A program made the position numbers and the translations under genes. From contig JBBTQM010000016.1 of NCBI GenBank assembly GCA_038065675.1, positions 1-50,144 on the forward strand: 50,144 nucleotides of DNA, read 5' to 3'. This document shows, one piece after another, positions 3,877 through 47,397 of the stretch (its first letter is position 1; the number at the start of each line of letters is the position of its first letter). A model generated the notes under the pieces. It saw only the letters and a program-made list of their open reading frames with translations, had not been told where the DNA came from and ran no database searches. Source of the DNA: Patescibacteria group bacterium. Lineage in GTDB: Bacteria; Patescibacteriota; Minisyncoccia; Phycocordibacterales; VMEP01.

Positions 3877-3964
3877 GCAAAAAACAATTAACTATTAACA
3901 AATAACAAGTAACCCGCCTGGGAATCGGTACAAGTTAATAGTTACAAGTGAAAAGTTAGTCCAC

Positions 3965-20387: not shown

Positions 20388-21659
20388 ATGGGAAATTTTT
20401 TCAACAAACTTACGTTTGTCTTCTCCGACAAAAATTTGCGCGGGAAGATTATTTTCGCCGTTGCCGCGCTCGTTGTCTTCCGCCTTCTCGCCACGATTCC
20501 GATTCCGGGGATTGACACATTTCGGCTTGAGCAATTTTTTTCCAACAATCAATTTTTGGGGCTTTTGAATATTTTCTCCGGAGGCGGGCTTTCCAATCTT
20601 TCAATAGTCATGTTGGGTGTCGGCCCGTACATTACCTCTTCCATTATCATGCAGCTTCTCACCATCATGATTCCGTCACTTAAGGCGCTTTATCATGAAG
20701 AAGGAGAATTAGGCAGACGAAAATTCACGCAATATTCGCGGTTGCTCACTGTCCCTCTGGCCATACTTCAGGGATTAGGACTTCTTATTCTTCTTGAGAG
20801 GCAGGGTATAATCGAACATCTTTCAATGTTTAGCCGAATTTTGAATCTTGTCGTCATTACCGGCGGTTCCATTCTTCTTATGTGGATAGGAGAGCTTGTT
20901 TCGGAATTTGGAATCGGGAACGGCGTTTCCCTCCTTATTTTCGCCGGCATCGTGGCGGTCATTCCGTCGCAGGTTGGACAGCTTTTGTTCACCTTTGACG
21001 TTTCGCAAATTCCCCTGTATCTGGCGTTCATCGCCGTCGCGCTTTTTATTATCGCCGGCGTGGTGTTCATAACCGAGGCCGAACGGCCGCTTCCCGTTAC
21101 TTACGCCAAGAGGGTGCGCGGCATGAAAGTTTACGGCGGCCTCGCCACATATCTTCCTTTGCGCTTGAATCAAGCCGGAGTTATCCCGATTATTTTCGCC
21201 CTCTCAATTCTTCTTTTCCCGCAGATGATAGGGACGTTCCTTGGCTCTTCGGGAAATTCCATTTTGCAGAGTATCGGTATGATACTCAATTCAATAATGC
21301 AGAATACCTGGGTTTACTCAATCCTTTATTTCGTTATGGTGTTTCTTTTCACTTACTTTTATACGGCAGTCACCTTTGACCCGCATTCAATCGCGGAGAA
21401 CTTGCAGAAAAACGGCGCCTTTATTCCAGGCGTTCGTCCGGGGAATTCCACTTCCGAATATATAGGAAGAGTTCTCAATCGCATTACGCTTTTCGGCGCG
21501 CTTTTTCTGGGCATCATTGCTGTCTTGCCGCTTATAATGCAGGGAGCAACAGGCATCACGGCGTTTGCCATCGGCGGCACGGCGCTTCTCATCGTTGTTT
21601 CCGTCGTTCTTGACCTCATAAAGAAAATCGACGCGCAGATTTCGATGAGGGAGTATTAA
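20388..21659 (+). CDS. secY: Preprotein translocase subunit SecY
   Basis: 423 aa, 10 TM segments, conserved position after rplO. Confidence 0.96.
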   Translation: MGNFFNKLTFVFSDKNLRGKIIFAVAALVVFRLLATIPIPGIDTFRLEQFFSNNQFLGLLNIFSGGGLSNLSIVMLGVGPYITSSIIMQLLTIMIPSLKALYHEEGELGRRKFTQYSRLLTVPLAILQGLGLLILLERQGIIEHLSMFSRILNLVVITGGSILLMWIGELVSEFGIGNGVSLLIFAGIVAVIPSQVGQLLFTFDVSQIPLYLAFIAVALFIIAGVVFITEAERPLPVTYAKRVRGMKVYGGLATYLPLRLNQAGVIPIIFALSILLFPQMIGTFLGSSGNSILQSIGMILNSIMQNTWVYSILYFVMVFLFTYFYTAVTFDPHSIAENLQKNGAFIPGVRPGNSTSEYIGRVLNRITLFGALFLGIIAVLPLIMQGATGITAFAIGGTALLIVVSVVLDLIKKIDAQISMREY

Positions 21660-21660
21660 A

Positions 21661-21747
21661 AACCCACAACTCACAACAAACAACTAACAACAAGGAAGAC
21701 AATCAAATCCCTTTACATTGTAGGTTGTAGGTTGTAAGTTGTAGGTT
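21661..21747 (+). other. Imperfect long hairpin spacer with an A/C-only arm and a G/T-rich arm
   Basis: AACCCACAACTCACAACAAACAACTAACAAC (21661-21691) pairs with TTGTAGGTTGTAGGTTGTAAGTTGTAGGTT (21717-21746). By hand, about 24 of 31 positions pair. Confidence 0.55.
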
Positions 21748-35107: not shown

Positions 35108-36055
35108 ATGTTTGGAAATAACGGGAGAAAAAATTCATTTTATATAGGCTTAGTGGCCGTATTTTTTGCCGGCTTTTTCTTTTATGAATGGCTCCAAGAA
35201 GTAAGAATAAATAAAAAAATAGATTCATTGCGGACGGAACTTTTAGGGCCGCAGGCGGCGCTTGAGAAAGAATCAAAATCTCAGCAAAGCGACATTATTT
35301 CCCTCAAAGAAATGGTTAATAGAGAGCAGGTTATAAAAAAATCGCAGGACGAACTCCTTACCGCGGCGGTGGCGAAAGCCACCCCGGCGGTTGTTTCCAT
35401 AGTGGTTTCCAAAGACGTGCCGAAACTGGAAGTCGTGTATGTTAATCCGTTTGGCGAAGACCCATACTTCAAAGATTTCGGATTTCAAGTTCCCGTTTAT
35501 AAGCAGAAAGGAGTTGAGAGGCAAAAAGTCGGCGCCGGAACCGGATTTTTGGTAACCGGGGACGGTTACATTATTACCAACAAGCATGTGGTTCTCGATA
35601 CCGAAGCGCAATATACAGTATTGCTTTCAAACGGGCGACAAGAAAATGCAACCGTTGTATACAGAGACCCGAAATACGATATTGCCATCGTCAAAATCTC
35701 GGGTGTGGGATATAAAGCGGTTACCATTGGTGATTCGGGCAAGCTGAAACTCGGCCAGACTGTTGTCGCAATCGGAAACGCGCTCGGACAATACAGCAAT
35801 TCAGTTTCAGTAGGGATTGTCTCCGGCTTAAACAGAAATATAAGCGCTTCGACTGGCGCCGGGGCGGAAGAACTCACCGGTGTTATTCAAACAGATGCCG
35901 CCATCAACCCCGGGAATTCCGGCGGGCCACTTCTTGATTTGGAGGGCGATGTCGTTGGTGTCAATGTTGCCACGGTTATCGGTTCAAGCAATATAAGTTT
36001 TTCCATACCGATTGACTCTGTGTTGGAATCAATCAAAAAAGTTATTTCTTTTTGA
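35108..36055 (+). CDS. HtrA/DegP-family trypsin-like serine protease without PDZ domain
   Basis: N-terminal TM helix. Catalytic triad contexts ITNKHVV, DIAIVKI and NPGNSGGPLLD. Confidence 0.88.
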   Translation: MFGNNGRKNSFYIGLVAVFFAGFFFYEWLQEVRINKKIDSLRTELLGPQAALEKESKSQQSDIISLKEMVNREQVIKKSQDELLTAAVAKATPAVVSIVVSKDVPKLEVVYVNPFGEDPYFKDFGFQVPVYKQKGVERQKVGAGTGFLVTGDGYIITNKHVVLDTEAQYTVLLSNGRQENATVVYRDPKYDIAIVKISGVGYKAVTIGDSGKLKLGQTVVAIGNALGQYSNSVSVGIVSGLNRNISASTGAGAEELTGVIQTDAAINPGNSGGPLLDLEGDVVGVNVATVIGSSNISFSIPIDSVLESIKKVISF

Positions 36056-36071
36056 GTTTTTTATTTGATGT

Positions 36072-36216
36072 GGAGATGGGATCGCCTACAAGTTTTTCCT
36101 CGCCGCCGCTCGGAAAACTCGCAGGCCGCCCCTCGCGGTTTCGTTTGCTAACGAAACAACGCTACGGTCTTCGATTCCCCCACGCGAGCAAAGCAGTTTG
36201 CTCGCTCATCTCCACC
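36072..36216 (+). ncRNA. tmRNA-like relic or candidate small RNA, in the opposite orientation to ssrA
   Basis: The 5' GGAGATGGGATCGCCTACAAG resembles the ssrA 5' end GGGGATGATCGGCATAGACAG. The 3' TTCGATTCCCCC-[25-nt palindromic insert]-CATCTCCACC equals the ssrA T-loop/acceptor 3' strand. GGAGATG/CATCTCC forms a perfect 7-bp acceptor-like stem, but the T-stem 5' strand is degenerate. Confidence 0.4.
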
Positions 36217-36227
36217 GAAAAAACAAA

Positions 36228-36254
36228 AGCTCCCTTGCGGGAGCTAATGTTTTT
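36228..36254 (+). terminator. Intrinsic terminator after the tmRNA-like relic
   Basis: AGCTCCC, loop TTGC, GGGAGCT, then AATGTTTTT. Confidence 0.55.
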
Positions 36255-36491
36255 AAATCGGTGGAGATTACTACACGATGTTAGAACCTCCATCATTGAA
36301 TCACCAGATATGAATTTCCTTAAGGTGGTAGATGGTTGGGTGGACCTTCCAGCCATCCTCCGAGAGCTACGTACACCATCCATTAGAACCAATAGGTAGG
36401 TATATGATCGTTAACAACATTCACGACGTTAACTGAACGTAATGAATGAGGTGAATGTCTAGGAAAGAGTACTCAGGTACAATGGCCTCAT

Positions 36492-36899
36492 ATGGCAGTA
36501 GAGGTAGATAAAGAAGCCAAGTGTGGAGGGTGTGGTGCCACCCTAGATGAGCAATACAATCTCCCTTTGGAAGCTCGAACGCCTTGCCCTAAATGTGGGT
36601 CTCTAATTCGCGCCCTAAGGATAAGTATTTCCGAGACTGTCGAAGTACACGATTCTCTGAGGTTGGCGCATAAGGACTCTGATGGCAAGAAGCTTGCCCA
36701 GATTCAATCTGGTGATGACCTCCATAGAGATACCAATACTTGGAGAGTACTCGAACGAGTAATTGATTGGAGTAAGAAGTGGTATACCGAAACAATCAAA
36801 GACCGTACCACTGGAGAAGTTATAAGCCACACCAGTGAAGACCTGCGCGCACATACTGGACACGGCGCAGCAAAACCTAAAGACACTAGAGATTCCTGA
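36492..36899 (+). CDS. Hypothetical protein with N-terminal zinc ribbon (135 aa)
   Basis: CGGCGATLDEQYNLPLEARTPCPKCGS provides CxxC...CxxC. First gene of a three-gene plus-strand block. Confidence 0.6.
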   Translation: MAVEVDKEAKCGGCGATLDEQYNLPLEARTPCPKCGSLIRALRISISETVEVHDSLRLAHKDSDGKKLAQIQSGDDLHRDTNTWRVLERVIDWSKKWYTETIKDRTTGEVISHTSEDLRAHTGHGAAKPKDTRDS

Positions 36900-37680
36900 T
36901 GGATACAGCTACTATAGGTGGGTGAACACCACTCTAGAATCCATATCCTTTGATTACTCAGACGCTGACAAAGCACTCTTTGAGAATGGCCAAGATGCTC
37001 ACTGGCAGCATATTGAGGAGTACTACGTAACTCTTAGGGCAAGGTGTGTAGACGAACTAAAAATATCTGAAAGTGGCACTCATAAGGCATGGATAAGCCA
37101 GAGGGTAGAGATGCATATGGTGACATCCATCATGCGTCTCCTTTACTTAACCGAATCCTTTAGGGATGCTTCCGTCAAATTTAATGCCACCGCCGCTGCC
37201 GTTCACATAAAGGCGATGGTGGAAGTACCTTTCCATTTGGGATATCTGCTCTGGATTCTGTGTACCCATAAAAAATTTGAGGAAATGAAAGCAGAGCTGG
37301 CTAAAGTAGCTTGGGGAATTCAAGATGCAGATACCGGTCTGACAGGCAAAGCAAACATAACTCAAAAGGATTTCTACACACATGCAGATGAGATGATTGA
37401 AAAACATTTTAAAGATGAGCCTTCCACAATAAAGATATTCAAGACAATCTATAAAGAGGCCAATGCTTTTGGCCACCATAACTTTGAGGGGAGAAACGCG
37501 CTGGTGGGTGTGCAAAAAGGAGACACTTGGAAACCTAAGGATAGGAAAGAGTGGTTTATTTTCATGACAAGCAATATCTTTCAAGTCTTTCTGTACGCAG
37601 GCACAATCCTGAGTATGTCTTCCTTCTTTGTGAATGCCATAGATCACTACTTAGCAGAGTTACCAGATAATTTTGCATAA
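36835..37680 (+). CDS. Hypothetical helical protein (about 260-281 aa), paralogue of the next gene; start uncertain
   Basis: The track start is a GTG that overlaps the upstream gene by 65 nt, and there is no in-frame ATG until much later. The segment SFRDASVKFNATAAAVHIKAMVEVPFHLGYLLW aligns with ALRDVDHLASSEGAGPNILDLTRKMIEHGISIEYMLW of the next ORF. Confidence 0.55.
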   Translation: MKTCAHILDTAQQNLKTLEIPDGYSYYRWVNTTLESISFDYSDADKALFENGQDAHWQHIEEYYVTLRARCVDELKISESGTHKAWISQRVEMHMVTSIMRLLYLTESFRDASVKFNATAAAVHIKAMVEVPFHLGYLLWILCTHKKFEEMKAELAKVAWGIQDADTGLTGKANITQKDFYTHADEMIEKHFKDEPSTIKIFKTIYKEANAFGHHNFEGRNALVGVQKGDTWKPKDRKEWFIFMTSNIFQVFLYAGTILSMSSFFVNAIDHYLAELPDNFA

Positions 37681-37685
37681 ACTAT

Positions 37686-38447
37686 ATGGAGGAGAAACTA
37701 AAGAAGTTGATGGAGAGGACATTGATAGCCACCAAACCGCTAGCAGACGCAGCTCCTGTAGGTGACACAAAGTTTTTAATAGTACTGCTCGGCATATACC
37801 GAATCTCTTTCACTGCCTTAAGAGATGTTGACCACCTCGCTTCCAGTGAGGGAGCTGGTCCAAATATATTGGATCTAACAAGAAAAATGATTGAGCACGG
37901 TATCTCCATTGAATACATGCTCTGGAAGGGTAAGGAGGAAATGGCAGCCCGATTTCAGGATTACCTAACCGTTCAAATGCATGAGGAATTGGAACTTCTT
38001 AAATCTGTGGGCTTTGACCCTCAGAGTTTAAGTGCCGAGCTCCAGATTGGAGTTGAGGATACTGAAAAGGCATACAACGCACTTCCTAGTGGCACAAAGA
38101 AAGATAAGAATTGGGCAGGTGTGAATTTTGAGAAGATGTTGCAAGACCTTACTGCCGCAGGAGTTATTGAAGCGGCAGACTCGCCAAGACTATTATCTGC
38201 CTATGTGTGGGGTTGCCGATTAAACCATCCCAATCCTTTCATGACACATGCCTACCTAGAACCAAAGGAGATGGAGGTTGCAAATACATTCACACTGCGG
38301 TTAGGTATGATAATGGCACTTGCGGTGCACCTACGTCTTACCACCAGACTGATTGATGAGTCTCGTTTTGCGGCTGGTTCAAACATCTACCCTGAAGTAG
38401 CGGCCGATGTTACCGCGATTCAGAACGATCTCAGTTCTGTGGCCTAG
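37686..38447 (+). CDS. Hypothetical helical protein (253 aa) with an RxxxxH motif
   Basis: All-helical. RKMIEH (Rx4H) sits in a conserved-looking helix. Possibly DUF5677/HEPN-like (recollection only, low certainty). Confidence 0.6.
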   Translation: MEEKLKKLMERTLIATKPLADAAPVGDTKFLIVLLGIYRISFTALRDVDHLASSEGAGPNILDLTRKMIEHGISIEYMLWKGKEEMAARFQDYLTVQMHEELELLKSVGFDPQSLSAELQIGVEDTEKAYNALPSGTKKDKNWAGVNFEKMLQDLTAAGVIEAADSPRLLSAYVWGCRLNHPNPFMTHAYLEPKEMEVANTFTLRLGMIMALAVHLRLTTRLIDESRFAAGSNIYPEVAADVTAIQNDLSSVA

Positions 38448-39426
38448 ATAGCCACTTAGTAACAGTTTTTGCTGCTTCGTTTGTGAGAGCAGTATATTGC
38501 TCTTCTCCTCCAAAGACCTCTGGATTTAATGGCTGCCGCTTTGTGTTTATCTCGTGGATTGTTTTAAGCACTGTCATTTTTAGTGCTCCTGTCTCAACGA
38601 CAAGTTCGGTCATCCCTTGTTTTTCCTTCTCTGACATCTCATTTGGGTTCACCCCGTTCCTGTCTACGACATTAGTGGCAAATTTTGCATCAAGTGCAAA
38701 TTCCTTTACTAGCAAATCGGTTCTGCTGATGGATGCATTAAACAAGTCTTTTGATAGAGTTGTCCATTCATCATTCGGTGATGCTTCAGTATTCTCTGTG
38801 CCCTCACTCGCGGCTGCAACTAATGCATTGGACTTTTCGGATGCTGCGGCAAAGACCTCAAGACCCTCCTGTAACTCCTGTTGCAGTCTCTTTATGCCTC
38901 CAACGAGCATCTCTTTTGTAGCCCCGACAAGTTTCAGAATCTCATGTGCAATTCTAAGCGCTTCTTTAGGATCTGTAGAAGCAAGCATTGTCTTAGTCGC
39001 CTTATCCAGTTGGACATGGTAGTCACTCTCAGGGTCACTCTTATTTTCGTAGAAGGAAAATAAGACTTCCTGTTGGAAAAATAATGTTTCGACGACACGT
39101 TGCGCTTCAATAACATCGTTCATGATGTCGTGCGCGTGATAGAGACCCTCCATGGTCTCTACATGCTTCTTTCCCTCATCGTCCATTTTACTCATCATGA
39201 GTTCAAGAATGGTCTTATACATCTGTTTCCATGCAAGTTGCTGGTCCGTCAAATCGTCCTCATCTTTACTAAGGTTGGTGCGCTCACGAATGTATCTGTA
39301 CAGCTCGAAGAGGTCACTGAGTTTCATGCCTTCGCCATATGCAGCCATTTTGTCGGTAACCTCCTGTCTCACCCTAGAGAGGGTAGGTTCGTAGTCATCT
39401 CTATAACGTATTTTCTTGGAGGTCAT
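38431..39426 (-). CDS. Hypothetical acidic helical protein (331 aa), co-transcribed with the XRE regulator
   Basis: Its ATG overlaps the stop of the upstream HTH gene (ATGA at 39423-39426). No recognisable motif. Confidence 0.6.
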   Translation of the reverse strand: MTSKKIRYRDDYEPTLSRVRQEVTDKMAAYGEGMKLSDLFELYRYIRERTNLSKDEDDLTDQQLAWKQMYKTILELMMSKMDDEGKKHVETMEGLYHAHDIMNDVIEAQRVVETLFFQQEVLFSFYENKSDPESDYHVQLDKATKTMLASTDPKEALRIAHEILKLVGATKEMLVGGIKRLQQELQEGLEVFAAASEKSNALVAAASEGTENTEASPNDEWTTLSKDLFNASISRTDLLVKEFALDAKFATNVVDRNGVNPNEMSEKEKQGMTELVVETGALKMTVLKTIHEINTKRQPLNPEVFGGEEQYTALTNEAAKTVTKWLSRPQN

Positions 39427-39644
39427 GATTTTAGAAAGTAGTTAATTTGCTTATTGTAAATCCTTGCGAAACGTTGGAGTTCCACTACATCTACCCTTTG
39501 TTGGCCTGACTCCACGTTGGAGATATGGGACTGAGGTCTACCCAGCTTCTTAGCCACCTGTACCTGTGTCAGTCCAGCTTCCTCACGAGCCTTCCTTAGA
39601 CGCTCAATAAAGTAGGCATACTCCTTTGTCTGGACTGACTTCAT
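39423..39644 (-). CDS. XRE/Cro-CI-family helix-turn-helix regulator
   Basis: LTQVQVAKKLGRPQSHISNVESGQQRVDVVEL is a classical HTH_3 signature. I prefer the ATG at 39644 to the TTG at 39671 used by the ORF track. Confidence 0.85.
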   Translation of the reverse strand: MKSVQTKEYAYFIERLRKAREEAGLTQVQVAKKLGRPQSHISNVESGQQRVDVVELQRFARIYNKQINYFLKS

Positions 39645-39670
39645 ACTTACAGGCTGTATCCAAGAAGTCA

Positions 39671-39689
39671 ATATCCAAAGTTTGGATAT
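39671..39689. promoter_or_regulatory. Candidate operator palindrome in the divergent promoter region
   Basis: ATATCCAAA-G-TTTGGATAT, a perfect 9-bp inverted repeat between the XRE gene and the divergent 39734 gene. TATAAT at 39695-39700. Confidence 0.55.
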
Positions 39690-39733
39690 TTGTATATAAT
39701 CAATTCCGTATCATAAAAACCACTGAAAACGAT

Positions 39734-40156
39734 ATGGCACAGAAAATCAAACTTGGATTTGTCGCAGTTCTGTTTATTATCATGTTAGCTATAGCTATCC
39801 CTGCTTTGTTTGATTCTCGCGTGCAGTCAGCGCCAGTACAGACCGTACAGACTCCCACTGTTCGTGAGTACTCAAATGCTGAGGTCTATGCGATGGCAGA
39901 AACGATCATCTCTCCGTATCTCAAGGCACCCTCGACAGCTAAGTTCCCAAGCATGTCAGAGGTAAAGATCTCTCGACTGGAAAATGATGGATTCCGTGTT
40001 GATGGTTATGTGGATTCTCAAAATAGTTTTGGTGCCATGCTCCGCAGTCCATTCACTACAATCTTTCAATACAGCAGCTCCAGTGATAAAGCAGATATAT
40101 ACGCAGTGGTGCTCGATGGGGAAACCTTGCTAAAGAGGACGCCGAACGGCCAATAA
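39734..40156 (+). CDS. Small exported/anchored hypothetical protein (140 aa)
   Basis: Start taken at the ATG at 39734 (MAQKIKLGFVAVLFIIMLAIAIPALF). It is followed by two hairpins, including the terminator ATATCGCCCA, loop GAGT, TGGGCGATAT plus T-run (40270-40299). Confidence 0.6.
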   Translation: MAQKIKLGFVAVLFIIMLAIAIPALFDSRVQSAPVQTVQTPTVREYSNAEVYAMAETIISPYLKAPSTAKFPSMSEVKISRLENDGFRVDGYVDSQNSFGAMLRSPFTTIFQYSSSSDKADIYAVVLDGETLLKRTPNGQ

Positions 40157-40486
40157 GACATACGCTGAGGGTACTCCAGCCCCCTCTGAGGCACGCGAAT
40201 AGGATACCGTGTGGTTTCCACCATTTACCTATAAAGGAGGTGCGCCTCGTGCCCTCGGCGCACCGAATGATATCGCCCAGAGTTGGGCGATATTTTTTTG
40301 CTATGTCAATGCCTTTTATTTAAGCCACGAAAAAGCATGGAGTTTGCCATATATGTCGGTATTCATTCTTGTCCACAGCCCCGCGCGAGCGTGGAAGGTG
40401 TAGCATCGAAATCAAACCCTATACCCAAGTCGTGATGTTCGCAGCGCACGCAAACTTATCAGCTCACGCAAGTTTGCACATGAAAA

Positions 40487-40666
40487 ATGGCACCAAGCTC
40501 AGAGGGGCTAGTTCTATTCGCGCGGCTCTTTAAACAAGAATTCGCCGAGGAACTTACTCCAGAAGAAGTCGAGCAACAAGCTCGCACGCTCCTGAATCTC
40601 TACATAGCTATCTACCGCACTCCGCTGGAGGTATCAGAGGTTCAAAAATTATTCGACTCAGATTAG
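40487..40666 (+). CDS. Small hypothetical protein (59 aa), below the ORF-track cutoff
   Basis: My own translation: MAPSSEGLVLFARLFKQEFAEELTPEEVEQQARTLLNLYIAIYRTPLEVSEVQKLFDSD*. Co-directional with and adjacent to the next ORFs. Confidence 0.4.
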   Translation: MAPSSEGLVLFARLFKQEFAEELTPEEVEQQARTLLNLYIAIYRTPLEVSEVQKLFDSD

Positions 40667-40670
40667 AAAT

Positions 40671-40844
40671 ATGCATTCACTACTTACACCGCATCCAACG
40701 ATGAGCGACGAAGCCCTCCGCGCAAAGGAAGGCCAGCTCAACGTTCAGGTCATACTCCGAGAAATGGAGTTGAAAAAATTGAAGAAAGAGCTCGCAGAGG
40801 TTCGCAATTTTATCAGCATAAACATCTGGCGTTATGGAATCTAG
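40671..40844 (+). CDS. Small coiled-coil hypothetical protein (57 aa), below the ORF-track cutoff
   Basis: My own translation: MHSLLTPHPTMSDEALRAKEGQLNVQVILREMELKKLKKELAEVRNFISINIWRYGI*. It overlaps the start of the ATPase gene by 11 nt, which suggests translational coupling. Confidence 0.4.
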   Translation: MHSLLTPHPTMSDEALRAKEGQLNVQVILREMELKKLKKELAEVRNFISINIWRYGI

Positions 40845-42348
40845 TAAATCGCAGAGCAAAACGAGCAAGGACTCGATTGACCAGAGTAGTAAAAAAGAAC
40901 TCAAACCTCGTCCGATGGTTGCCTGCACACTCCCCGACGGAACACTCGTAGATATGGTCTACTCGACCACCACGGGAGCATCATTCGCAGTCGCTCAAGG
41001 AGATAAAATCTTTGGTCTGCCAGAACTCTACGTCGGCCAAGATGGAAATCTGGTCATGCAGGAAAAGGACGCGGTCTACAAATATGTACCGTCGTGGATT
41101 CTGAAAGACCATGTAAAAAAGAATTTCATCCACATCGCTTCGCATCAAGAGGAATATGGCTCAATGTCCGACCTGTATCAAGAGATTCGCTCACACATCA
41201 AGAAGTACGTCGTGCTAGAAGATCCTCGCTTCTATGATGTTGCCGTGGGGTATGTGTTGATGACTTGGGTCTACGATCGCTTCAACACAGTTCCGTACCT
41301 TCGTGTGGTGGGAGATCTCGGTACTGGCAAATCACGCTTCCTCGATGTTATTGGAAAACTCTGTAACCGCTCCCTTATGGCAAGTTCTATTTCGCCTGCA
41401 GCCATTTATCGCACGCTCGACCAAGTTGAAGGAACTCTCGTCTACGACGAAGCAGACTTCAAGTCGTCAGATATGACCGACGACATCGTGAAGCTGCTGA
41501 ACAGTGGGAATAAGAAAGGAGCGCCTGTCGTGAAGATGGAAGTATCCGATGATTCTATAAAGACCGTCACGTTCCGTGTGTTTGGTCCAAAGATACTTGG
41601 TTCCCGACGCAACTGGTCAGACCTCGCGCTTGAAAGCCGTTGCATCACATATAAGTTGTTCCCACTGAAGAAGGTTGATGTCTCAGTTCACCTACCGCCG
41701 TCGTTCGACGCAGAAACACAGATGCTCCGCAATAAGTTGCTGATGTTCAGACTCAAGAACTATCACATTATTCAGGAGACAGAGGATTCTCTTGGAGGGA
41801 TAGAATTTCCGAGGCTCCGCCAAGCAGTGCTCGCACTTACGTCAGTGCTCCAAGTGGTTGATAGAGAAGCTTTAGGAATAGTCCTCGATTTCCTAGGAGA
41901 CTATGAGAAAACACTTCTCGATACCGTGTCCACCGATAGTCATGCAGACGTACTTCTATCTATCGCTTGGCTCCTAGAGTTCGACGACATCATCAGGGAC
42001 TCTGGAAAGATGTACATGGAGTCGATTAAGAATAAGTTCAATGCCATGTATTACGAAGACTACGCGGAACGTGAGACTAAAGAGGTTCGTCGCGATGGCT
42101 CAGTGATGAGAATCCCAGGGCAAGTAGTCTCGTCAAGAAAGATTGGTAGTTATGTAGATAGGCTCGGCCTCGCCAAAGCAAGAGATGGGGGTGGTATCTA
42201 TATTCCACTTGGCAAAGAAGCTCCCAAGATTCAGAAGTTAGTTGCTCGCTTCGGCTTGCAGGATATTCTCACTGGATTTCGTGCCGATGAAGAGGAGGCT
42301 CGCAACAATCCAAATGCATTCAAGGAGGATAAGGAGAGACCTTTCTAG
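40834..42348 (+). CDS. P-loop NTPase of mobile-element replication/mobilisation type (DUF3631-like)
   Basis: Walker A GDLGTGKSR and Walker B TLVYDEADF. The context ISPAAIYRTLDQVEGTLVYDEAD...LLNSGNKKGAPVVK resembles island/plasmid primase-associated ATPases (recollection). Confidence 0.7.
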   Translation: MESSKSQSKTSKDSIDQSSKKELKPRPMVACTLPDGTLVDMVYSTTTGASFAVAQGDKIFGLPELYVGQDGNLVMQEKDAVYKYVPSWILKDHVKKNFIHIASHQEEYGSMSDLYQEIRSHIKKYVVLEDPRFYDVAVGYVLMTWVYDRFNTVPYLRVVGDLGTGKSRFLDVIGKLCNRSLMASSISPAAIYRTLDQVEGTLVYDEADFKSSDMTDDIVKLLNSGNKKGAPVVKMEVSDDSIKTVTFRVFGPKILGSRRNWSDLALESRCITYKLFPLKKVDVSVHLPPSFDAETQMLRNKLLMFRLKNYHIIQETEDSLGGIEFPRLRQAVLALTSVLQVVDREALGIVLDFLGDYEKTLLDTVSTDSHADVLLSIAWLLEFDDIIRDSGKMYMESIKNKFNAMYYEDYAERETKEVRRDGSVMRIPGQVVSSRKIGSYVDRLGLAKARDGGGIYIPLGKEAPKIQKLVARFGLQDILTGFRADEEEARNNPNAFKEDKERPF

Positions 42349-42480
42349 ACCTCAACTCATTAACATCGTTAACATCATTACTATTCCAACACGCCACACG
42401 TTGTAGACAGGTTCTAACATTTTTTTCCTGTACAGAACTCGCGAGCCAAATACCATCGGCAACATGATCCATATGTTGCC

Positions 42481-42666
42481 ATGTCTATGAAAAAGGTAGT
42501 TGTCTCTCGAAAAGTGAGCTCTCCAGCACCGAACAGGTTTGATGCCTGTGAACTTGCGAAAGGTTTGATTTTCGCCAGTGGTTTTAGTCATGGGCAAGTT
42601 GCTTATGTTAAATACCGTTCTGGCAAACTCACGATTCATCTGGGTAAGAAAGTGAAAGAGGAATAA
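42481..42666 (+). CDS. Small hypothetical protein (61 aa) upstream of the recombinase; possible directionality factor
   Basis: Only its position immediately upstream of the recombinase supports the call, and there is no RBS. The overlapping minus-strand ORF 42352-42684 looks less protein-like. Confidence 0.3.
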   Translation: MSMKKVVVSRKVSSPAPNRFDACELAKGLIFASGFSHGQVAYVKYRSGKLTIHLGKKVKEE

Positions 42667-42676
42667 CTCGCGTGTC

Positions 42677-44380
42677 GTGTCCATTAAATTTATGAAAGAA
42701 GATTACAGTCACCTAAAATTCGTTTACTACGGGCGTCGCTCGATAAAGGCCAATAAGACTGAATTGGACACAAGAATTGCGTCCCTTGATTCTCAAAAGT
42801 TTGAGATTGATCAACTCGCCGATAGATACAATATAACCATTCTCAAAACGTTCAGTGAAACGGAATCCGCCAGCGAGGCTGATGAGCGTCCAGAGTTCGA
42901 GAAGATGGTTGCCTATATTAAGTCTGGCAAGGCAAATGCAATTCTTTGTTTCGCAATTGATCGTTTGTCTCGTAATCCTATGGACAGTGCAAAAATTGAA
43001 ACTATGCTACAGAAAGGAAATCTGCAGATGGTTCTTGCACCTGATAGGAAGTGGACTCTCGATGGTCACGTCATTGCACGTGTTGTAGAAGCTGCGGCAG
43101 CAAACCAGTACATCATTGATCTCAAAAAACATATAAAGCGTGGGCAAGGAGACGCAGTGCGTCGTGGGTTCAGACCTGGCCTTGCTCCAATTGGATATAT
43201 AAACAGTAGATATCGTGAGAAGGGAATGGATGAGGAAATTAAGGTAGATGAACATCCATTCAGAATCCTCCGCTCGATGTTCGATAGAGTTTTGTCGGGC
43301 CAGTACACACCTTTCCAAGTATTGAAGTGGGCTACAGAGGTAGAAGGTTTCCGTTCTCGTAAAACAAGACGCTATCCCAAGGGCCGACCTCTATCCAAAG
43401 CTGCTTGGTACAATATTCTTTCTTCGCGTTTTTACTATGGAGAGTTTGAGTATCCAACAGGAGCTGGCAACTGGACTCAAATTACAGGTATGTACTACAA
43501 GCCTCTAATTACACGGGCAGAGTTTGAGACGGTTCAACATATTCTCCGTAAAGATGCTCCGCGCCCTAAGAAGCACGAACATGCGTATGTAGGACTTATG
43601 CGCTGTGGCCATTGTGGTGCAAGAATCACTTGTGAAGCCAAGACCAAACGCCAGAAGAATGGGAATGTTCACCACTATTCCTACTACCGTTGTACTGGCC
43701 AAGTTGATCCAGACTGCACTGAGAAATGCACTCGTCAGGACAGGCTAGAAGAACAGGTGGTTAACTACCTATCTTCAATCCAGATTTCTCCCGCCTTCCA
43801 TCAGTGGGCGATCAGTGAACTCAAAAAGGAATACGACAGAGAGATGGATAACAAAACCTCAGTCCTCTATTTGCAACATCGTGAGCACCAAAAAGTTAAA
43901 GAGATGCTTACGCGCCTCTACGATATGAGATTGGTGGGAGATATTGACTCCGACTATTTCCAGAAAGAGAAGGGTAGATTAGAAACTGAGGAAAAGAGGC
44001 TTGATGGTCAATTGGCAGTTATAAACGCACGCGTCCAAACATGGATATATGATGCTGAACGCATAATGACCTTCGCAGAGCGCGCCGCCAGTGAGTTTAA
44101 GAAGGGGTCTATGGAGAAGAGACGCTCTATTCTTGCTGCTCTTGGTACCGAACATAAACTCATGAACCGTGAGTTGACTATAAAAACACAAAAACCACTC
44201 CGTGTGGTACACGAAATGGTTTCTGAGTCGAAAGAAGCAGGATTTCCATTAGAACCTCCCAAAGAGCCTTTAGAATATGGCTCAAATGGAAAAAAGAAAC
44301 CTGTCAGTCTACGGTTGTGGAGATGGGGGGAATCGAACCCCCGTGCAGGTGAGATGCAACCGAACGTCTACAATGCGTAG
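42677..44380 (+). CDS. Large serine recombinase (phage-integrase type)
   Basis: Resolvase-type N-domain with catalytic-Ser context FVYYGRRSIKAN. Recombinase domain (GLAPIGY), zinc ribbon (CGHCGARITC...YYRCTG) and coiled coil. The start may be the ATG at 42692. The last 63 nt overlap ssrA on the opposite strand. Confidence 0.9.
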   Translation: MSIKFMKEDYSHLKFVYYGRRSIKANKTELDTRIASLDSQKFEIDQLADRYNITILKTFSETESASEADERPEFEKMVAYIKSGKANAILCFAIDRLSRNPMDSAKIETMLQKGNLQMVLAPDRKWTLDGHVIARVVEAAAANQYIIDLKKHIKRGQGDAVRRGFRPGLAPIGYINSRYREKGMDEEIKVDEHPFRILRSMFDRVLSGQYTPFQVLKWATEVEGFRSRKTRRYPKGRPLSKAAWYNILSSRFYYGEFEYPTGAGNWTQITGMYYKPLITRAEFETVQHILRKDAPRPKKHEHAYVGLMRCGHCGARITCEAKTKRQKNGNVHHYSYYRCTGQVDPDCTEKCTRQDRLEEQVVNYLSSIQISPAFHQWAISELKKEYDREMDNKTSVLYLQHREHQKVKEMLTRLYDMRLVGDIDSDYFQKEKGRLETEEKRLDGQLAVINARVQTWIYDAERIMTFAERAASEFKKGSMEKRRSILAALGTEHKLMNRELTIKTQKPLRVVHEMVSESKEAGFPLEPPKEPLEYGSNGKKKPVSLRLWRWGESNPRAGEMQPNVYNA

Positions 44381-44689
44381 TCTTTTTCGAAGTTTAAGAA
44401 AGGCGGTAAGAGAAAGACAAGATAACGCCCTCCCGATTCTCTATTTTCTCAAACGGCGCGAGAGACACGCGCCGTTCCAGTCTGAAAAGATGACACCCGT
44501 CACAACGTATCAGACGTCGGAAGTGCGGATGCGGCTTAGGCTAAAGCGAAAGCCGGAGCGTAAGGAGATAGAATCCCCTTAGCTTTTGAAAGTGCATTTG
44601 CATGTACTTTTTCCGAAAGTTTAGCGAGATTTCGGAGCTCGGCATTGCAATCCGGAAGCGATCAGCATCTGTCTATGCCGATCATCCCC
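44318..44689 (-). ncRNA. ssrA: tmRNA (SsrA)
   Basis: On the minus strand, 5' GGGGAUGAUCGGCAUAGACAG... to ...GGGGGUUCGAUUCCCCCCAUCUCCA 3'. Acceptor stem with G3-U70, T-arm GGGGG/UUCGAUU/CCCCC. An Ala-rich tag frame ends ...YAPAFALA-UAA. Adjacent to smpB. CCA is not encoded. Confidence 0.9.
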
Positions 44690-44783
44690 ATTTGAAAAAC
44701 TTATAACTTATAACTAATAACAAGTAACAAAAATCGTCAGTATATATTCTTCGTTAAGTGTTATTAGTTAATTGTCACTTGTT

Positions 44784-45276: not shown

Positions 45277-47205
45277 ATGATGTCTATGTCTCTCCTAAAA
45301 CCCAATAAAAACAAGGACGAAAGAGGCGGCAAGGCTCCGAAAATCAACCGCCGCCAGCTCCTTTCCAATTTCCTGACCGCCATCATTATTTTTCTAGTTT
45401 TGATGAGTCTTTACACCGTCTTTACGGATAGTAAGAATGATATTAAAGAACTTCCTTTGTCAGACGTGTCAAAAAAGATGCTTGCCGGGGAGGTTAAAAA
45501 AATCACCGTAGAAGGGGAGAAGCTTTCGGTTGTTCTCAAAGACAACACGACGATTGTGTCCAAAAAAGAAAGCGAAGCGTCTCTTTCGGAGACATTCAAA
45601 AATTACGGGGTAACGCCGGAGCGTCTTGCCGGAGTTGAAATAGAAATCAAGAGCAATACCGGCTTATCATTCTGGCTTTTGAATATTTTGCCGTTCGCCA
45701 TCCCGATAATTTTCATTATTGTTTTTTTCTGGTTTATATCGCGGCAAGTGCGCGGCGCCGGCATGCAGGCGTTTTCCTTCGGGCAGTCCAAGGCGCGCGT
45801 AATTAATCCGGACGACCAAAATCAAAAAGTTACCTTCAAGGATGTTGCGGGAGTAAAAGAGGCGAAAGAAGAACTCAAAGAAATCGTTGATTTTTTGCGC
45901 AACCCGAAAAAATTCTTGGATATCGGCGCGCGCATCCCCAAGGGGGTAATTCTCATGGGCGCGCCCGGAACAGGGAAAACAATTCTCGCGCGCGCCGTGG
46001 CGGGAGAAGCCGGAGTTCCGTTTTTCCATCTTTCAGGTTCGGAATTCGTTGAAATGTTTGTCGGCGTCGGCGCTTCGCGCGTGCGCGACCTTTTCATGAT
46101 GGCGAAAAAAGCGGCACCGGCGATTATTTTTGTTGATGAAATTGACGCCGTTGGCCGCGTGCGCGGGACGGGAATCGGCGGCGGCAATGACGAGCGCGAG
46201 CAGACTCTCAACCAAATTCTTGTGGAGATGGACGGATTTGAGCCCACAGAAAAAGTTATTGTTATGGCGGCGACGAACCGGCCGGATGTTTTGGACCCGG
46301 CGCTTCTTCGCCCCGGGCGCTTTGACCGCCGCGTCATTCTTGAACTTCCGGACCGCAATGACCGCGAGGAAATTTTAAAAATACACGCCGTAAAAAAACC
46401 GCTTGCCGAGGACGTTAATCTTCGTACCGTCGCCGAACGTACCCCCGGATTTTCCGGCGCCGATTTGTATTCCCTTATGAACGAAGGCGCGATTCTCGCC
46501 GCGCGCGAAGAAAGAAAAAAAGTTTCTCAATACGATTTAATCCGCGCCATAGAAAAAGTTATGCTGGGGCCTGAACGCAAAAGCCACGTCCTTTCAAAAA
46601 AAGAAAAGGAAATTACCGCTTATCACGAGGCGGGGCATGCGCTTGCCGCTTCCGTTCTCCCGTATGCCGACCCGGTGCACAAAATATCAATCGTCGCCAG
46701 AGGACATGCCGGCGGCTATACGCTCAAGCTTCCCCTTGAAGAAAGGCGGCTTCAGTCGCGCAAAGAATTTTTGGATGACATAGCGGTTGCTTTGGGCGGA
46801 TACGTTGCCGAAGAAATGATGTTTGGCGACATTACTACAGGGCCGTCTAGCGACCTGCAGGTCGCGACGGCGGTCGCGCGCGACATGGTAACGCGTTACG
46901 GAATGTCGGCGCTCGGGCCCGTGGCTCTTGAAGAAATGGTAGGAAGGTCTCCGTTTGGCAGAGGGCTTGAGGGCAGGGAATATTCAGAAGAGGTGTCGGC
47001 GAAAATAGACGCCGAGGTTTCCAAAATATTAAATGAGGCTTTTGCCAAGACAAGAAAAGTTTTGAAAGACCACAAAAAGGCGCTTGATGCCATCGCTTCA
47101 CGCCTGATTGAAACGGAAACAATAGAACAGGAAGAATACGAGAAAATAATTATCGCAAACGGCATAATGCCGAAGAAGCGCGAGGAAATGAATTTGGCGA
47201 TTTAA
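45277..47205 (+). CDS. ftsH: ATP-dependent zinc metalloprotease FtsH
   Basis: The ORF-track start at 45055 overlaps smpB and is rejected. Candidate ATGs are at 45277, 45280 and 45286. There is a TM helix, Walker A GAPGTGKT, Walker [12 protein letters not shown], and the zinc site HEAGHAL. Confidence 0.93.
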
Positions 47206-47308
47206 AAACTATAACAAGTAACTAATCAACTTATAACAAGATAAAAAATTATTTCAGGCGTTTTTATCGGTTGTTTACGCGGGAATAATGTATTAGTGTA
47301 TTTATATT

Positions 47309-47382
47309 CCACCCCTAGCTCAGTTGGTTAGAGCACAGAGCTTATACCTCTGCGGTCCTTGGTTCGAATCCAAGGGGGTGGA
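47309..47382 (+). tRNA. tRNA-Ile with anticodon UAU
   Basis: Hand-folded cloverleaf: acceptor CCACCCC/GGGGTGG, U8 A9, D-arm GCTC-AGTTGGTTA-GAGC, anticodon arm CAGAG-CTTATAC-CTCTG (anticodon TAT at 47343-47345), variable loop CGGTC, T-arm CTTGG-TTCGAAT-CCAAG, discriminator A. CCA is not encoded. Confidence 0.85.
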
Positions 47383-47397
47383 CAGAAAAATAAAAAA

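Follow-up and report, generated by a model that had tools for sequence, protein, structure and literature searches.

The window, the whole 50,144-nucleotide stretch of patescibacterial DNA analysed here, carries a functional tmRNA gene, ssrA, on the minus strand at 44315–44689, which is also the sole tmRNA called by ARAGORN. The last 21 nucleotides of this gene (44317–44337) are the sequence found copied in the element described below. An island of ~8 kb (36269–44316) lies between the ssrA end ...CCAC and the ssrA terminator, and its plus-strand ORF at 42677–44380 encodes a large serine recombinase with Resolvase, Recombinase and Zn_ribbon_recom domains. Displaced 3' fragments of tRNA and tmRNA genes mark the ends of genomic islands (Islander, PMC4383910), and ssrA islands are known in Dehalococcoides (PMC3146451). 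The 8-kb island conforms to the Islander criterion, having an integrase and a same-strand repeat of the ssrA 3' end at its far end: ATCTCCAC occurs at 44317–44324 and again at 36261–36268, an exact direct repeat of 8 bp rather than the 12 bp reported in the initial annotation of the locus.

Beyond the island, the minus strand reads through 36261–36268, a segment designated T (36217–36260) and the element proper (36070–36215); on the plus strand, a protease gene ends 17 nt upstream of the element. T consists of a bidirectional, terminator-like hairpin (stem 36228–36245) with its spacers, and forms the centre of a long palindrome that spans from the ssrA 3' end to the antisense arm of the element. 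In the island-free relatives L004, L005, L007 and L009, an intact ssrA is followed by CCACC, T and the element. This arrangement identifies 36228–36245 as the native ssrA terminator and 36261–36268, the distal junction core of the island, as the displaced native ssrA 3' end; contigs of other metagenomes begin to match the window at 36260/61. Because island-free relatives carry the same element beside ssrA, the element is part of the chromosome backbone, not of the island. The ancestral order is ssrA–T–element, and the serine-recombinase island came later, between ssrA and T. The terminator that the initial annotation saw after its plus-strand mini-gene therefore exists as a hairpin but is that of ssrA, and the same relatives overturn the idea that the element is encoded by the island or forms its border. 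For islands inserted at ssrA, the module with its terminator shows which side is truly chromosomal, and it accounts for 'inverted tmRNA fragments' that annotation would otherwise list as pseudogenes.

The window element comprises 145 nt with four simple hairpins, arranged as P1[P2, P3[P4, P5]] on the minus strand, P3 being degenerate here. It opens with the acceptor part of an antisense arm (36207–36216, minus strand GGTGGAGATG), which complements ssrA ...CATCTCCACC and provides the 5' strand of the closing helix P1, where 36208–36215 pairs with 36070–36077. The T part of the arm (36170–36181, minus strand GGGGGAATCGAA) complements the ssrA T-loop and 3' T-stem strand, and the P2 hairpin (36184–36205, 9 bp, CUGC loop) is placed exactly between the two parts; together they amount to 10 + 12 nt of exact complement to the native ssrA end. 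P4 (36134–36161) carries a conserved AGC...GCGAG internal loop at its base, and the long hairpin P5 (36078–36132) has tandem G-A pairs and a GGCG loop (CGAGCGGCGGCGAG). The element closes with S3 (36070–36083), a decayed same-strand copy of the ssrA 3' end reading CGAT-CCCATCTCCAC. The decay is a 4-nt deletion, through which the P3 partner was lost; P1, whose 3' strand is S3, is intact at 8 bp. In relatives S3 is intact and reaches up to 20 nt.

A family of modules behind tRNA and tmRNA genes

We searched for further copies with a covariance model, R1, that comprises 18 metagenomic relatives and leaves out the window lineage. The minus strand of 36070–36215 matches it over its full length (97.7 bits, E=1.4e-25, model positions 1–151 of 151), and this is the sole match in the 50-kb window, on the minus strand only. 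Metagenome contigs yielded at least 119 pattern matches and at least 106 R1 matches from 100 sources, among them groundwater, lakes, sediments and bioreactors, with more than 100 loci altogether. R1 members lie directly 3' of, and co-oriented with, genes for tmRNA or for tRNA-Ile, -Ser, -Gly, -Val, -Ala or -Trp: out of 106 matches, 49 follow a tmRNA called by ARAGORN and ~21 more a recognisable 3' end of tmRNA, 8 are found after tRNA genes, ~19 stand behind an island junction ending ...CCAC, and 6 are tandem copies. Of 101 elements, 87 have a terminator-like hairpin ahead of them; tRNA-linked copies often lie just 16–20 nt past the gene and lack a strong terminator. Two copies per contig are found in L124, L147, L180 and L192, at tDNA (tRNA/tmRNA gene) flanks only; L124 combines a tRNA-Ala copy and a tmRNA copy on a single contig, copies with P4–P5 only also occur, L147 among them, and in L024 one gene is enclosed between two T–element units. 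The genes downstream of the elements are diverse and housekeeping. At species level the element is present at ~13 of 80 smpB loci, about one in six related ssrA loci.

The minus strand of 36070–36215, with its terminator at 36217–36260, belongs to a family of non-coding modules of ~150 nt in Patescibacteria, which can occur at several tDNAs of one genome and in tandem arrays. On the gene strand the common layout is, from 5' to 3': S1, the last 21 nt of the gene (T-loop, 3' T-stem strand, 3' acceptor strand, A73 and C74); the terminator T; the antisense copy of S1, split by P2; P4 and P5; and S3, which repeats the gene end in sense orientation and closes the fold by pairing with the antisense arm as P1/P3. 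Rfam models produced only sub-threshold permuted-tmRNA hits and miRNA noise for the module core, and we found no description of the module in the literature open to searching; it is apparently undescribed and lacks an Rfam model.

Folded strand, conservation and the tmRNA-like reading

The five-helix fold is supported by strong covariation. Compensatory changes affect 26 of 38 pairs in alignment A3, and P2 covaries at 9/9 pairs, with 99.7% of cells paired among 102 distinct sequences. In alignment A4, 36 of 38 pairs covary and 92% of cells are paired (shuffles, 69.8%; slid controls, ~40%), and G-U cells outnumber A-C cells on the gene strand by 176 to 55 (p=6e-16); these covariation and G-U statistics are somewhat inflated, since the family sequences are related and A4 was fitted to the model. 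An identical abstract shape is predicted for 21 of 33 elements. The folded strand is the gene strand: its MFE is below that of the opposite strand in 32 of 35 elements (p=2e-6), and it scores 97–102 bits with R1, the opposite strand 12–17 bits. For the window element the MFE is –73.5 kcal/mol on the minus strand vs –58.3 on the plus strand.

The initial annotation had read the locus on the other strand, as a tmRNA-like gene inverted with respect to ssrA. The sequence parts on which it relied are all present: the plus strand of 36072–36216 begins with GGAGATGGGATCGCCTACAAG and ends with TTCGATTCCCCC (36170–36181), a 25-nt palindrome (stem 36184–36192/36197–36205) and CATCTCCACC (36207–36216). 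Within the window, TTCGATTCCCCC occurs in the element and in ssrA only (0.49 expected by chance, one mismatch allowed), and ATCTCCACC only at 36208–36216 on the plus strand and 36260–36268 on the minus strand (0.12 expected). These features are non-random; the strand and the assignment were wrong. The plus-strand start, taken for an ssrA 5' end, in fact reverse-complements the 3' end of ssrA; in relatives it continues through the complement of T-stem and T-loop (GTGGAGATGGCGGGAATCG) with no D-loop-like motif. Its likeness to the 5' D-loop region of ssrA, absent in relatives, we take to be lineage-specific or coincidental. The minus-strand location of ssrA stands, and the element reads on this same strand. 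The pairing of the two ends likewise survives with its A3-U70 pair, at 8 bp instead of 7 and with the 5' T-stem half absent.

A plus-strand gene of this kind, encoded by the island or running convergently towards ssrA with a shared terminator, might produce a ~145-nt RNA that mimics the tRNA-like domain of tmRNA. The terminal stem of 7–8 bp followed by a terminator would suit such an RNA, and transcription of the adjacent protease gene would traverse the element. Most observations point the other way. The Rfam models for tmRNA (RF00023) and tRNA (RF00005) returned no match at gathering score (47 bits for tmRNA) or at E<=10 on either strand of 35900–36400, and ARAGORN called no tmRNA or tRNA at 36069–36270. 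A-U takes the place of G3-U70, the arm being GGAGATG in the unbiased genome-derived copies of L010, L019, L040, L058 and L061. There is no T-arm: on the plus strand CGGTC stands ahead of TTCGATT, and the minus strand has the T-loop complement only. The 'T-loop' would be buried in a duplex, because the 5' end of the element in relatives perfectly complements T-loop and T-stem. The plus fold is 15 kcal/mol worse, the G-U bias and the model scores favour the minus strand, and elsewhere in the family the upstream neighbour on the strand opposite to the gene is the terminator of a previous unit or an unrelated gene in either orientation. We regard such an RNA as extremely improbable. A tRNA-like handle for processing by RNase P and CCA addition is not favoured either, given that A73 and C74 are base-paired in P1 and a T-loop is missing.

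Since a hairpin precedes 87 of the 101 elements and no promoter is visible ahead of them, RNA could arise from the element only by read-through. RNA runs contained none with the window element, and coverage by X6 contigs was confined to the island edge and the protease motif. When aligned on L152, metatranscriptome contigs represent related tmRNAs that end at the mature 3' end with no read-through; a related element is present, at a depth of 2.8, in a single 'viral metagenome RNA-Seq' contig of ambiguous status.

Conservation of the element far exceeds what neutral divergence would leave. Compared between the window and L004, it is ~89% identical and T is ~98% identical (41 of 42 nt), compared with 49.6% identity at fourfold-degenerate sites, and the changes in stems, including those in P4, are compensatory. 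This disparity argues against a neutral relic, the pure relic of the initial annotation, in which the element would be debris of an old integration, inversion or palindrome extension at the ssrA 3' end. Decay does occur in the family: the window has its shortened S3 and lost P3, remnants are seen in L211 and in second copies of L040 and L061, and the ssrA 3' flanks of the clade contain several kinds of repeat debris. Nevertheless P2, P4 and P5 covary family-wide and the window copy matches R1 over its full length, and the relic reading is largely refuted, leaving it very improbable. The suggestions of an earlier integration or an attachment-site mimic fare better, as the element is linked to the role of the tmRNA gene's 3' end as an integration site: because the element is bounded by a direct copy of the ssrA end and carries an inverted one, both readings are still live, now as readings of a functional, conserved family.

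Re-matching to the resident gene and possible modes of action

Across the family the antisense arm complements the 3' end of the upstream gene, and the arm and S3 both change to match the particular tRNA or tmRNA gene at each locus. The T part tracks the resident T-arm in other genomes; the arm is re-matched to the resident gene in L010, L040, L061 and L080, and in L016 it is matched to tRNA-Ile with P2 unchanged; the tRNA-Ala and tmRNA copies of L124 show re-matching within one contig. S1 and S3 constitute a direct repeat beginning in the T-loop, and for the window module S3 is a same-strand repeat as defined by the Islander criterion. The arm fits S1 better than S3 in 47 of 49 elements, and with register shifts disallowed is perfect over 21 nt to S1 in 18 of 49 and to S3 in 1 of 49; the closing helix may therefore not be a selected pairing. 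Complementarity between arm and S1 also runs across the spacers and into the terminator stems, which are perfect and reach up to 20–21 bp. In L010 an unusual S1 tail matches the antisense arm, while S3 retains the canonical CCACC. The terminator type AAAACATTAGC...GCTTTTGTTTTT is seen only with the element.

Several features, the S1/S3 repeat, the L010 tail and the terminator type among them, resemble the traces of insertion. Elements of 98% identity occur with unrelated flanks. Close relatives carry differing versions of the element, and in L040 and L061 its unique part is flanked by exact repeats of 53–78 nt. Inverted ends are present in the family, with one copy in the 50-kb window; a short target duplication of the usual kind was not seen at the module. 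Island-free relatives have no ORF between S1 and S3. The module might also be one end of a larger island, a candidate that we rejected: we found no distant S copies, and no recurrent family or integrase downstream, the ORFs past S3 in L095, L150, L191 and L192 being housekeeping or of unknown function.

The explanation that we prefer, at roughly even odds (about 0.5), is that the module carries no cargo, inserts at the 3' ends of tDNAs and works in single-stranded form, as RNA or ssDNA. The integrative unit would consist of S, T, the antisense arm and the core, and would enter a tDNA by recombination within the segment from T-loop to C74. It would bring its own gene-completing 3' end and terminator, displacing the original end to become S3. 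The complementarity of arm and gene across the terminator palindrome would be kept by template-switch correction or by selection, and the active, selected form would be the single-stranded gene sense, present in read-through RNA or as ssDNA exposed in replication or transcription. Several observations fit this proposal poorly. No recombinase is linked to the module, none recurring among the downstream genes of family loci. Searches of viral contigs (two patterns) and of phage and plasmid collections returned no copy, and neither an empty-site/filled-site pair nor a circular or excised form was found; a clean empty site is lacking because the SmpB relatives compared (74–86% identity) all carry some version or remnant of the element. 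The better fit of the arm to S1 than to S3 also counts against it, as do the negative transcript searches and the terminator hairpins, with no visible promoter, ahead of most elements; the strong conservation among orthologues is more readily reconciled with an RNA of use to the host than with a selfish insertion.

Such an RNA might be a cis-acting device: in read-through transcripts the arm would pair with the last 21 nt of the gene and the spacer, and the resulting ~40-bp duplex round the terminator hairpin would mark the precursor for double-strand-specific cleavage, in 3'-end rescue or disposal. Alternatively, the duplex would be released once S3 is transcribed and competes for the arm. 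The near-perfect complementarity of arm and S1, far above that with S3, and its extension into the terminator stems speak for this device; the fold on the gene strand, the purifying selection in situ and the tRNA-linked copies close behind genes without a strong terminator are also in its favour. Against this, the element is dispensable, as only about one in six related ssrA loci carry it, and the device leaves the P4–P5 core, S3, the tandem arrays and P4–P5-only copies such as that of L147 unexplained. Template switching in a quasi-palindrome could maintain the complementarity without selection, and the metatranscriptome contigs contain no read-through RNA. We consider the device unlikely.

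By analogy with other folded attachment sites, the gene-sense strand may instead act as ssDNA, folding so that it reproduces the tDNA attachment site as a duplex; integrases supplied in trans would use the folded site and so build arrays of small modules and islands. Structure is conserved rather than sequence, and strand-specifically, and the layout of site, hairpin, inverted site and a further site is the one expected after integration of a folded site. Foreign DNA abuts the ...CCAC of S1 at ~19 of 106 loci, and two further observations are consistent with the same process: elements otherwise 98% identical diverge exactly past the CCAC of S3, and in L024 one gene lies between two T–element units. 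Yet a module-associated recombinase and an excised or extrachromosomal form are both missing, the adjacent islands use large serine recombinases, which act on double-stranded sites, the folded duplex lacks the 5' T-stem half, and no island was recognised among the ORFs after S3. A folded site is an unlikely reading, held with some reserve.

Quite unlikely is a further extension of the idea, that the split antisense arm is a guide and the module a self-retargeting, nucleic-acid-guided integrative element, working as a folded single strand by which the target site is rebuilt or in a bridge-RNA-like manner. A guide would recognise any complemented tRNA or tmRNA end; the conserved core with matched arms at tmRNA and at tRNA-Ile, -Ser, -Gly, -Val, -Ala and -Trp would follow from it.

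Significance and comparison with known systems

Should the family prove to be what it seems, the cargo-less module would rank among the more widespread non-coding elements with a defined structure in Patescibacteria. Unusually, both of its ends copy the last 21 bases of the neighbouring gene, one inverted and one direct, and are re-matched to each gene while the core stays constant. The module bears on tRNA and tmRNA gene ends as reused integration sites in reduced genomes, on whether small elements carry or regenerate their own target specificity, and on the processing of tmRNA/tRNA 3' flanks where the 3'-processing RNases may differ from those of model bacteria.

The order of S1, T and antisense arm corresponds to that of T-arm, 3' acceptor, loop and 5' acceptor-like strand in the permuted tmRNA RF04321. 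This model scores 22–29 bits in four relatives, below its gathering score of 47, and has no match in the window; unlike a permuted tmRNA, the module follows a complete one-piece tmRNA and has no coding piece after it. The terminal helix of 7–9 bp, whose 3' strand is identical to the acceptor and T-stem 3' strand of a genuine tRNA or tmRNA, recalls the tRNA-like domain of tmRNA. The module differs from tRNA-like structures in having neither a T-arm, a D-loop analogue nor G3-U70, in its paired A73 and C74, and in matching nothing in Rfam or ARAGORN.

Like displaced tDNA fragments, the module has a same-strand copy of the gene end (S3) downstream of an intact gene, an identity block from the T-loop to the gene end, and putatively inserted DNA that completes the gene. 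By contrast, it has an additional copy of the gene end, inverted and interrupted by a hairpin, and is conserved at more than 100 loci instead of decaying; unlike in islands of the Islander type, the interval from S1 to S3 contains no integrase or cargo but ~200 nt of conserved, covarying structure.

CIMEs are att-flanked, non-autonomous integrative elements without a recombinase that lie beside streptococcal ICEs. The module resembles them and MITE-like repeats in its small, non-coding body bounded by att-like repeats, its multiple copies, its tandem accretion with larger islands and its inverted ends (arm versus S3). It departs from both in that its terminal repeats copy the end of the target gene and are re-matched to each target, and in that it occurs only at tDNA 3' ends; its mobility is putative.

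The attP(+) site of CTX phage and the attC sites of integrons are folded single-stranded attachment sites. In the module too, inverted site copies and a hairpin loop would recreate a duplex site within one strand, structure is conserved over sequence, folding is strand-specific, and there is an association with arrays of inserted units. Its target, unlike theirs, is the end of a tRNA or tmRNA gene rather than dif or attI, and it carries an extra core of two hairpins.

A structured module on the ssrA strand

The feature at 36070-36215 is one member of a conserved family of structured modules that follow tmRNA and tRNA genes, and it is read on the minus (ssrA) strand. The initial annotation had placed an inverted, plus-strand tmRNA-like gene or relic here, at an island border, and the gene interpretation is incorrect. 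The sequence that this annotation described at 36072-36216 is indeed present: the plus strand begins GGAGATG..., and a T-loop-type 12-mer (TTCGATTCCCCC, 36170-36181) is followed by a 25-nt palindrome and an acceptor-type block (CATCTCCACC, 36207-36216). The proposed terminator after the plus-strand end is also found, as a hairpin with T-runs on either side at 36228-36245. The blocks shared with the 3' end of the functional ssrA gene (44315-44689, minus strand; ARAGORN; Rfam, 119.6 bits; terminal bases ...GGGGGTTCGATTCCCCCCATCTCCAC) are not due to chance: in the window, TTCGATTCCCCC occurs only in the element and in ssrA (0.49 sites expected even with one mismatch), and ATCTCCACC only at 36208-36216 (plus) and 36260-36268 (minus), with 0.12 expected. 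Both strands of the region are strongly structured (z = -4.3 and -9.3), and Rfam returns no tmRNA or tRNA for either strand, even with the cutoff relaxed to E<=10.

On the ssrA strand, approximately 10 of 58 species-level smpB-ssrA loci show the module arrangement directly past the terminator of ssrA. An antisense copy (the arm) of the last 21 nt of the gene (S1) comes first: the complement of the acceptor 3' strand, a hairpin of ~22 nt (P2) and the T-stem/T-loop complement. Some 100 nt of hairpins follow, and the module ends with S3, in which the final 11-20 nt of ssrA are repeated in direct orientation. Copied blocks track the resident gene, as shown by CCCGG in L010, an odd loop TTCGCTACCCC in L040, GACTCCCG in L061 and CAACTCCCACC in L080. 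A pattern scan for arm plus hairpin matched at least 119 metagenome contigs and none of the viral contigs. A covariance model (R1), built from 18 metagenome elements with the window lineage left out, has a single match in the window (36070-36215, minus, full length, 97.7 bits, E=1.4e-25), ~13 matches in 80 smpB loci and 106 in 100 sources; in smpB loci, forward-strand scores are 97-102 bits vs 12-17 on the reverse strand. We found no Rfam family covering the module and no description of it in the searchable literature.

The RNAalifold consensus of the 18 seeds comprises helices P1 (joining the ends) to P5, with compensatory double changes in 26 of 38 pairs. In the 106-member alignment, which is fitted to the model and contains related sequences, 36/38 pairs covary, 92% of cells are paired (69.8% after column shuffling, 32-44% when partners are slid), pairing in P2 reaches 99.7% of cells, and G-U exceeds A-C on the gene strand (176 vs 55 cells, p=6e-16; 53 vs 23 in P2, P4 and P5 alone). 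Independent MFE folds return the shape P1[P2, P3[P4, P5]] in 21/33 elements. Fold energy is lower on the gene-sense strand in 32/35 cases (mean 6.4 kcal/mol, p=2e-6), and in the window element it is -73.5 kcal/mol vs -58.3 on the other strand. Despite the alignment caveats all measures agree that the folded strand is the opposite of the one originally chosen, and a plus-strand gene, for all its tmRNA-like blocks and following hairpin, is scarcely credible. The window copy retains P1, P2, P4 and P5 and lacks P3 because its S3 carries a 4-nt deletion.

Chromosomal setting and conservation

The window comes from a groundwater, Paceibacterota-like Patescibacteria genome. Four contigs of one relative (L004, L005, L007 and L009; protease identity 82%, SmpB identity 86%) lack the 8-kb island and read, on the ssrA strand, ...CCCCCCATCTCCACC-GATTTAAAAACATTAGCTCCCGCAAGGGGGCTTTTGTTTTTT-CGGTGGGAGATG-[hairpin]-GGGGGAATCGAA... 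This arrangement identifies the hairpin at 36228-36245 as the native ssrA terminator and ATCTCCAC at 36261-36268 as the displaced native ssrA 3' end, with the island (36269-44316) inserted between the two. Therefore, the element belongs to the chromosomal backbone and is older than the island. The island boundary lies exactly between ssrA ...CCAC and the terminator, and its direct repeat measures 8 bp rather than 12. A large serine recombinase ORF of the island (42677-44380, plus) overlaps ssrA in antisense with its 3' part and terminates within the gene. About 19 of the 106 R1 matches lie behind foreign DNA ending ...CCAC, as in the window, with a like junction upstream (GGTTCTAAC, 17-19 nt, then CCAC), suggesting that the CCAC point is an integration hot spot. 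Logan contigs (X3, X4 and X6; soil, freshwater and aquatic runs) are nearly identical to the island left end (36260-36400). Similarity sets in at 36260/61 after a stretch of unlike sequence, indicating that the island also exists in other settings, flanked by different DNA or in a different form.

A comparison of the window with L004 gives 49.6% identity at fourfold-degenerate sites in the neighboring protease gene, whereas identity is 94% in ssrA, 41/42 nt in the terminator and ~89% in the element if one 11-nt indel is left aside. Stem changes in P2, P4 and P5 are compensatory. This rules out a neutral relic, barring a very recent exchange of the entire flank, and we consider such a relic very improbable.

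Several further repeats were observed. An A/T-rich motif (...ATAACAAGTAAC...) recurs in the window at 3880-3913, 21658-21702, 44695-44731 and 47202-47225, once immediately upstream of ssrA and once ~85 nt upstream of tRNA-Ile, and is possibly a promoter-region element. In L004 (11430-11610 and 10997-11308), another module, differing in type, lies between the first one and the protease gene, with a short hairpin replacing P2, its own terminator, 12 nt that match the ssrA 5' region in inverted orientation (TCGGCATAGACA) and an adjoining 103-aa ORF missing from the window; this 'type 2' also occurs in L044 and L209. In several relatives a further repeat module (TCGACTCGC...CTCGCTCGTGGCAAGCCAC...) stands after ...CCAC (L209 4095-4200 and 4640-4740; L214 5380-5700; after ssrA in L023, L052 and L089), often beside GIY-YIG ORFs of 85-95 aa; the two L209 copies flank a ~1-kb insert whose sole content is such an ORF.

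Host genes and turnover

Other R1 matches follow tmRNA genes called by ARAGORN (49 of 106), clear tmRNA 3' ends (~21 more) or tRNA genes (8; Ile-UAU, Ser, Gly, Val, Ala), and six are tandem copies; pattern matches add tRNA-Trp. All R1 matches share the orientation of the gene. Copies linked to tRNA genes have an arm and S3 matched to the tRNA concerned: the L016 copy reads GTGCACGCG-[usual P2]-GGGTAGG... and terminates in CCCTACCGCGTGCAC, the tRNA-Ile end, and contig L124 holds one tRNA-Ala-matched and one tmRNA-matched copy. The tRNA-Ile-linked copy of L147 is reduced to P4 and P5, which marks these helices as the core. The window tRNA-Ile(UAU) gene (47309-47383) has no module behind it; the same gene has one in L016, L060, L070 and L147.

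Terminator-like sites precede 87/101 elements and follow the 3' end in 29/99, vs 5/87 control windows. The window element was found in no public RNA run. Metatranscriptome contigs at one family locus are related tmRNAs ending at the mature 3' end, and a related element is present on a single low-depth contig whose library is ambiguous. A cis-acting RNA device that serves read-through precursors seems unlikely.

We favor, with a probability of about one half, an integrative unit that lacks cargo and whose single-stranded fold, as RNA or DNA, is under selection. The L010 gene terminus ...CTCCATTC matches the arm while S3 retains ...CTCCACC, as expected if the unit supplied a new gene end. Terminators of the type AAAACATTAGC-stem-GCTTTTGTTTTT occur only where an element is present, exact repeats of gene end, terminator and arm (78 nt in L040, 53 nt in L061) flank the unique part, and 98%-identical elements have unrelated flanks. 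Module versions differ among SmpB relatives at 74-86% identity; L214 has an intact P2-less version, L211 a remnant and L209 a 'type 2' behind a 1-kb island. In L024 (3855-4812), ssrA is followed by two near-identical terminator-module units ~700 nt apart; the single ORF between them (166 aa, membrane-anchored) runs on the opposite strand, which gives the locus a cassette-like layout. Counting against mobility, no recombinase was found linked to the module, viral contigs and phage and plasmid collections yielded no free form, and there was no clean empty site among the SmpB relatives at 74-86% identity. Downstream neighbors are diverse housekeeping genes, with no recurrent recombinase or nuclease among the genes neighboring family members.

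The antisense arm and known systems

The S1/S3 direct repeat has its left edge in the T-loop and its right edge at C74, the known geometry of elements integrated in tRNA/tmRNA genes (PMC4383910), and counts as a sign of insertion. A folded-ssDNA mimic of an attachment site appears quite unlikely. The arm is perfect over 21 nt against S1 in 18/49 elements and against S3 in 1/49, and complements S1 better than S3 in 47/49. Complementarity to S1 continues across the spacers and on into the terminator stems, which reach up to 21 bp, so that S1, terminator and arm form one long palindrome interrupted solely by P2. Either selection acts on pairing between the arm and the end of its own gene, or template switching in the quasi-palindrome would preserve the match, an upkeep that we infer from a known mutational mechanism. 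Permuted (two-piece) tmRNA gives sub-threshold Rfam matches in relatives (L096 1462-1540, L102 1135-1210, L104 566-645 and L173 1003-1081; 22-29 bits vs a gathering score of 47). These matches cover the ssrA 3' end, terminator and antisense arm, and arise because the hairpin formed by these parts shares the strand order of a permuted tmRNA precursor.
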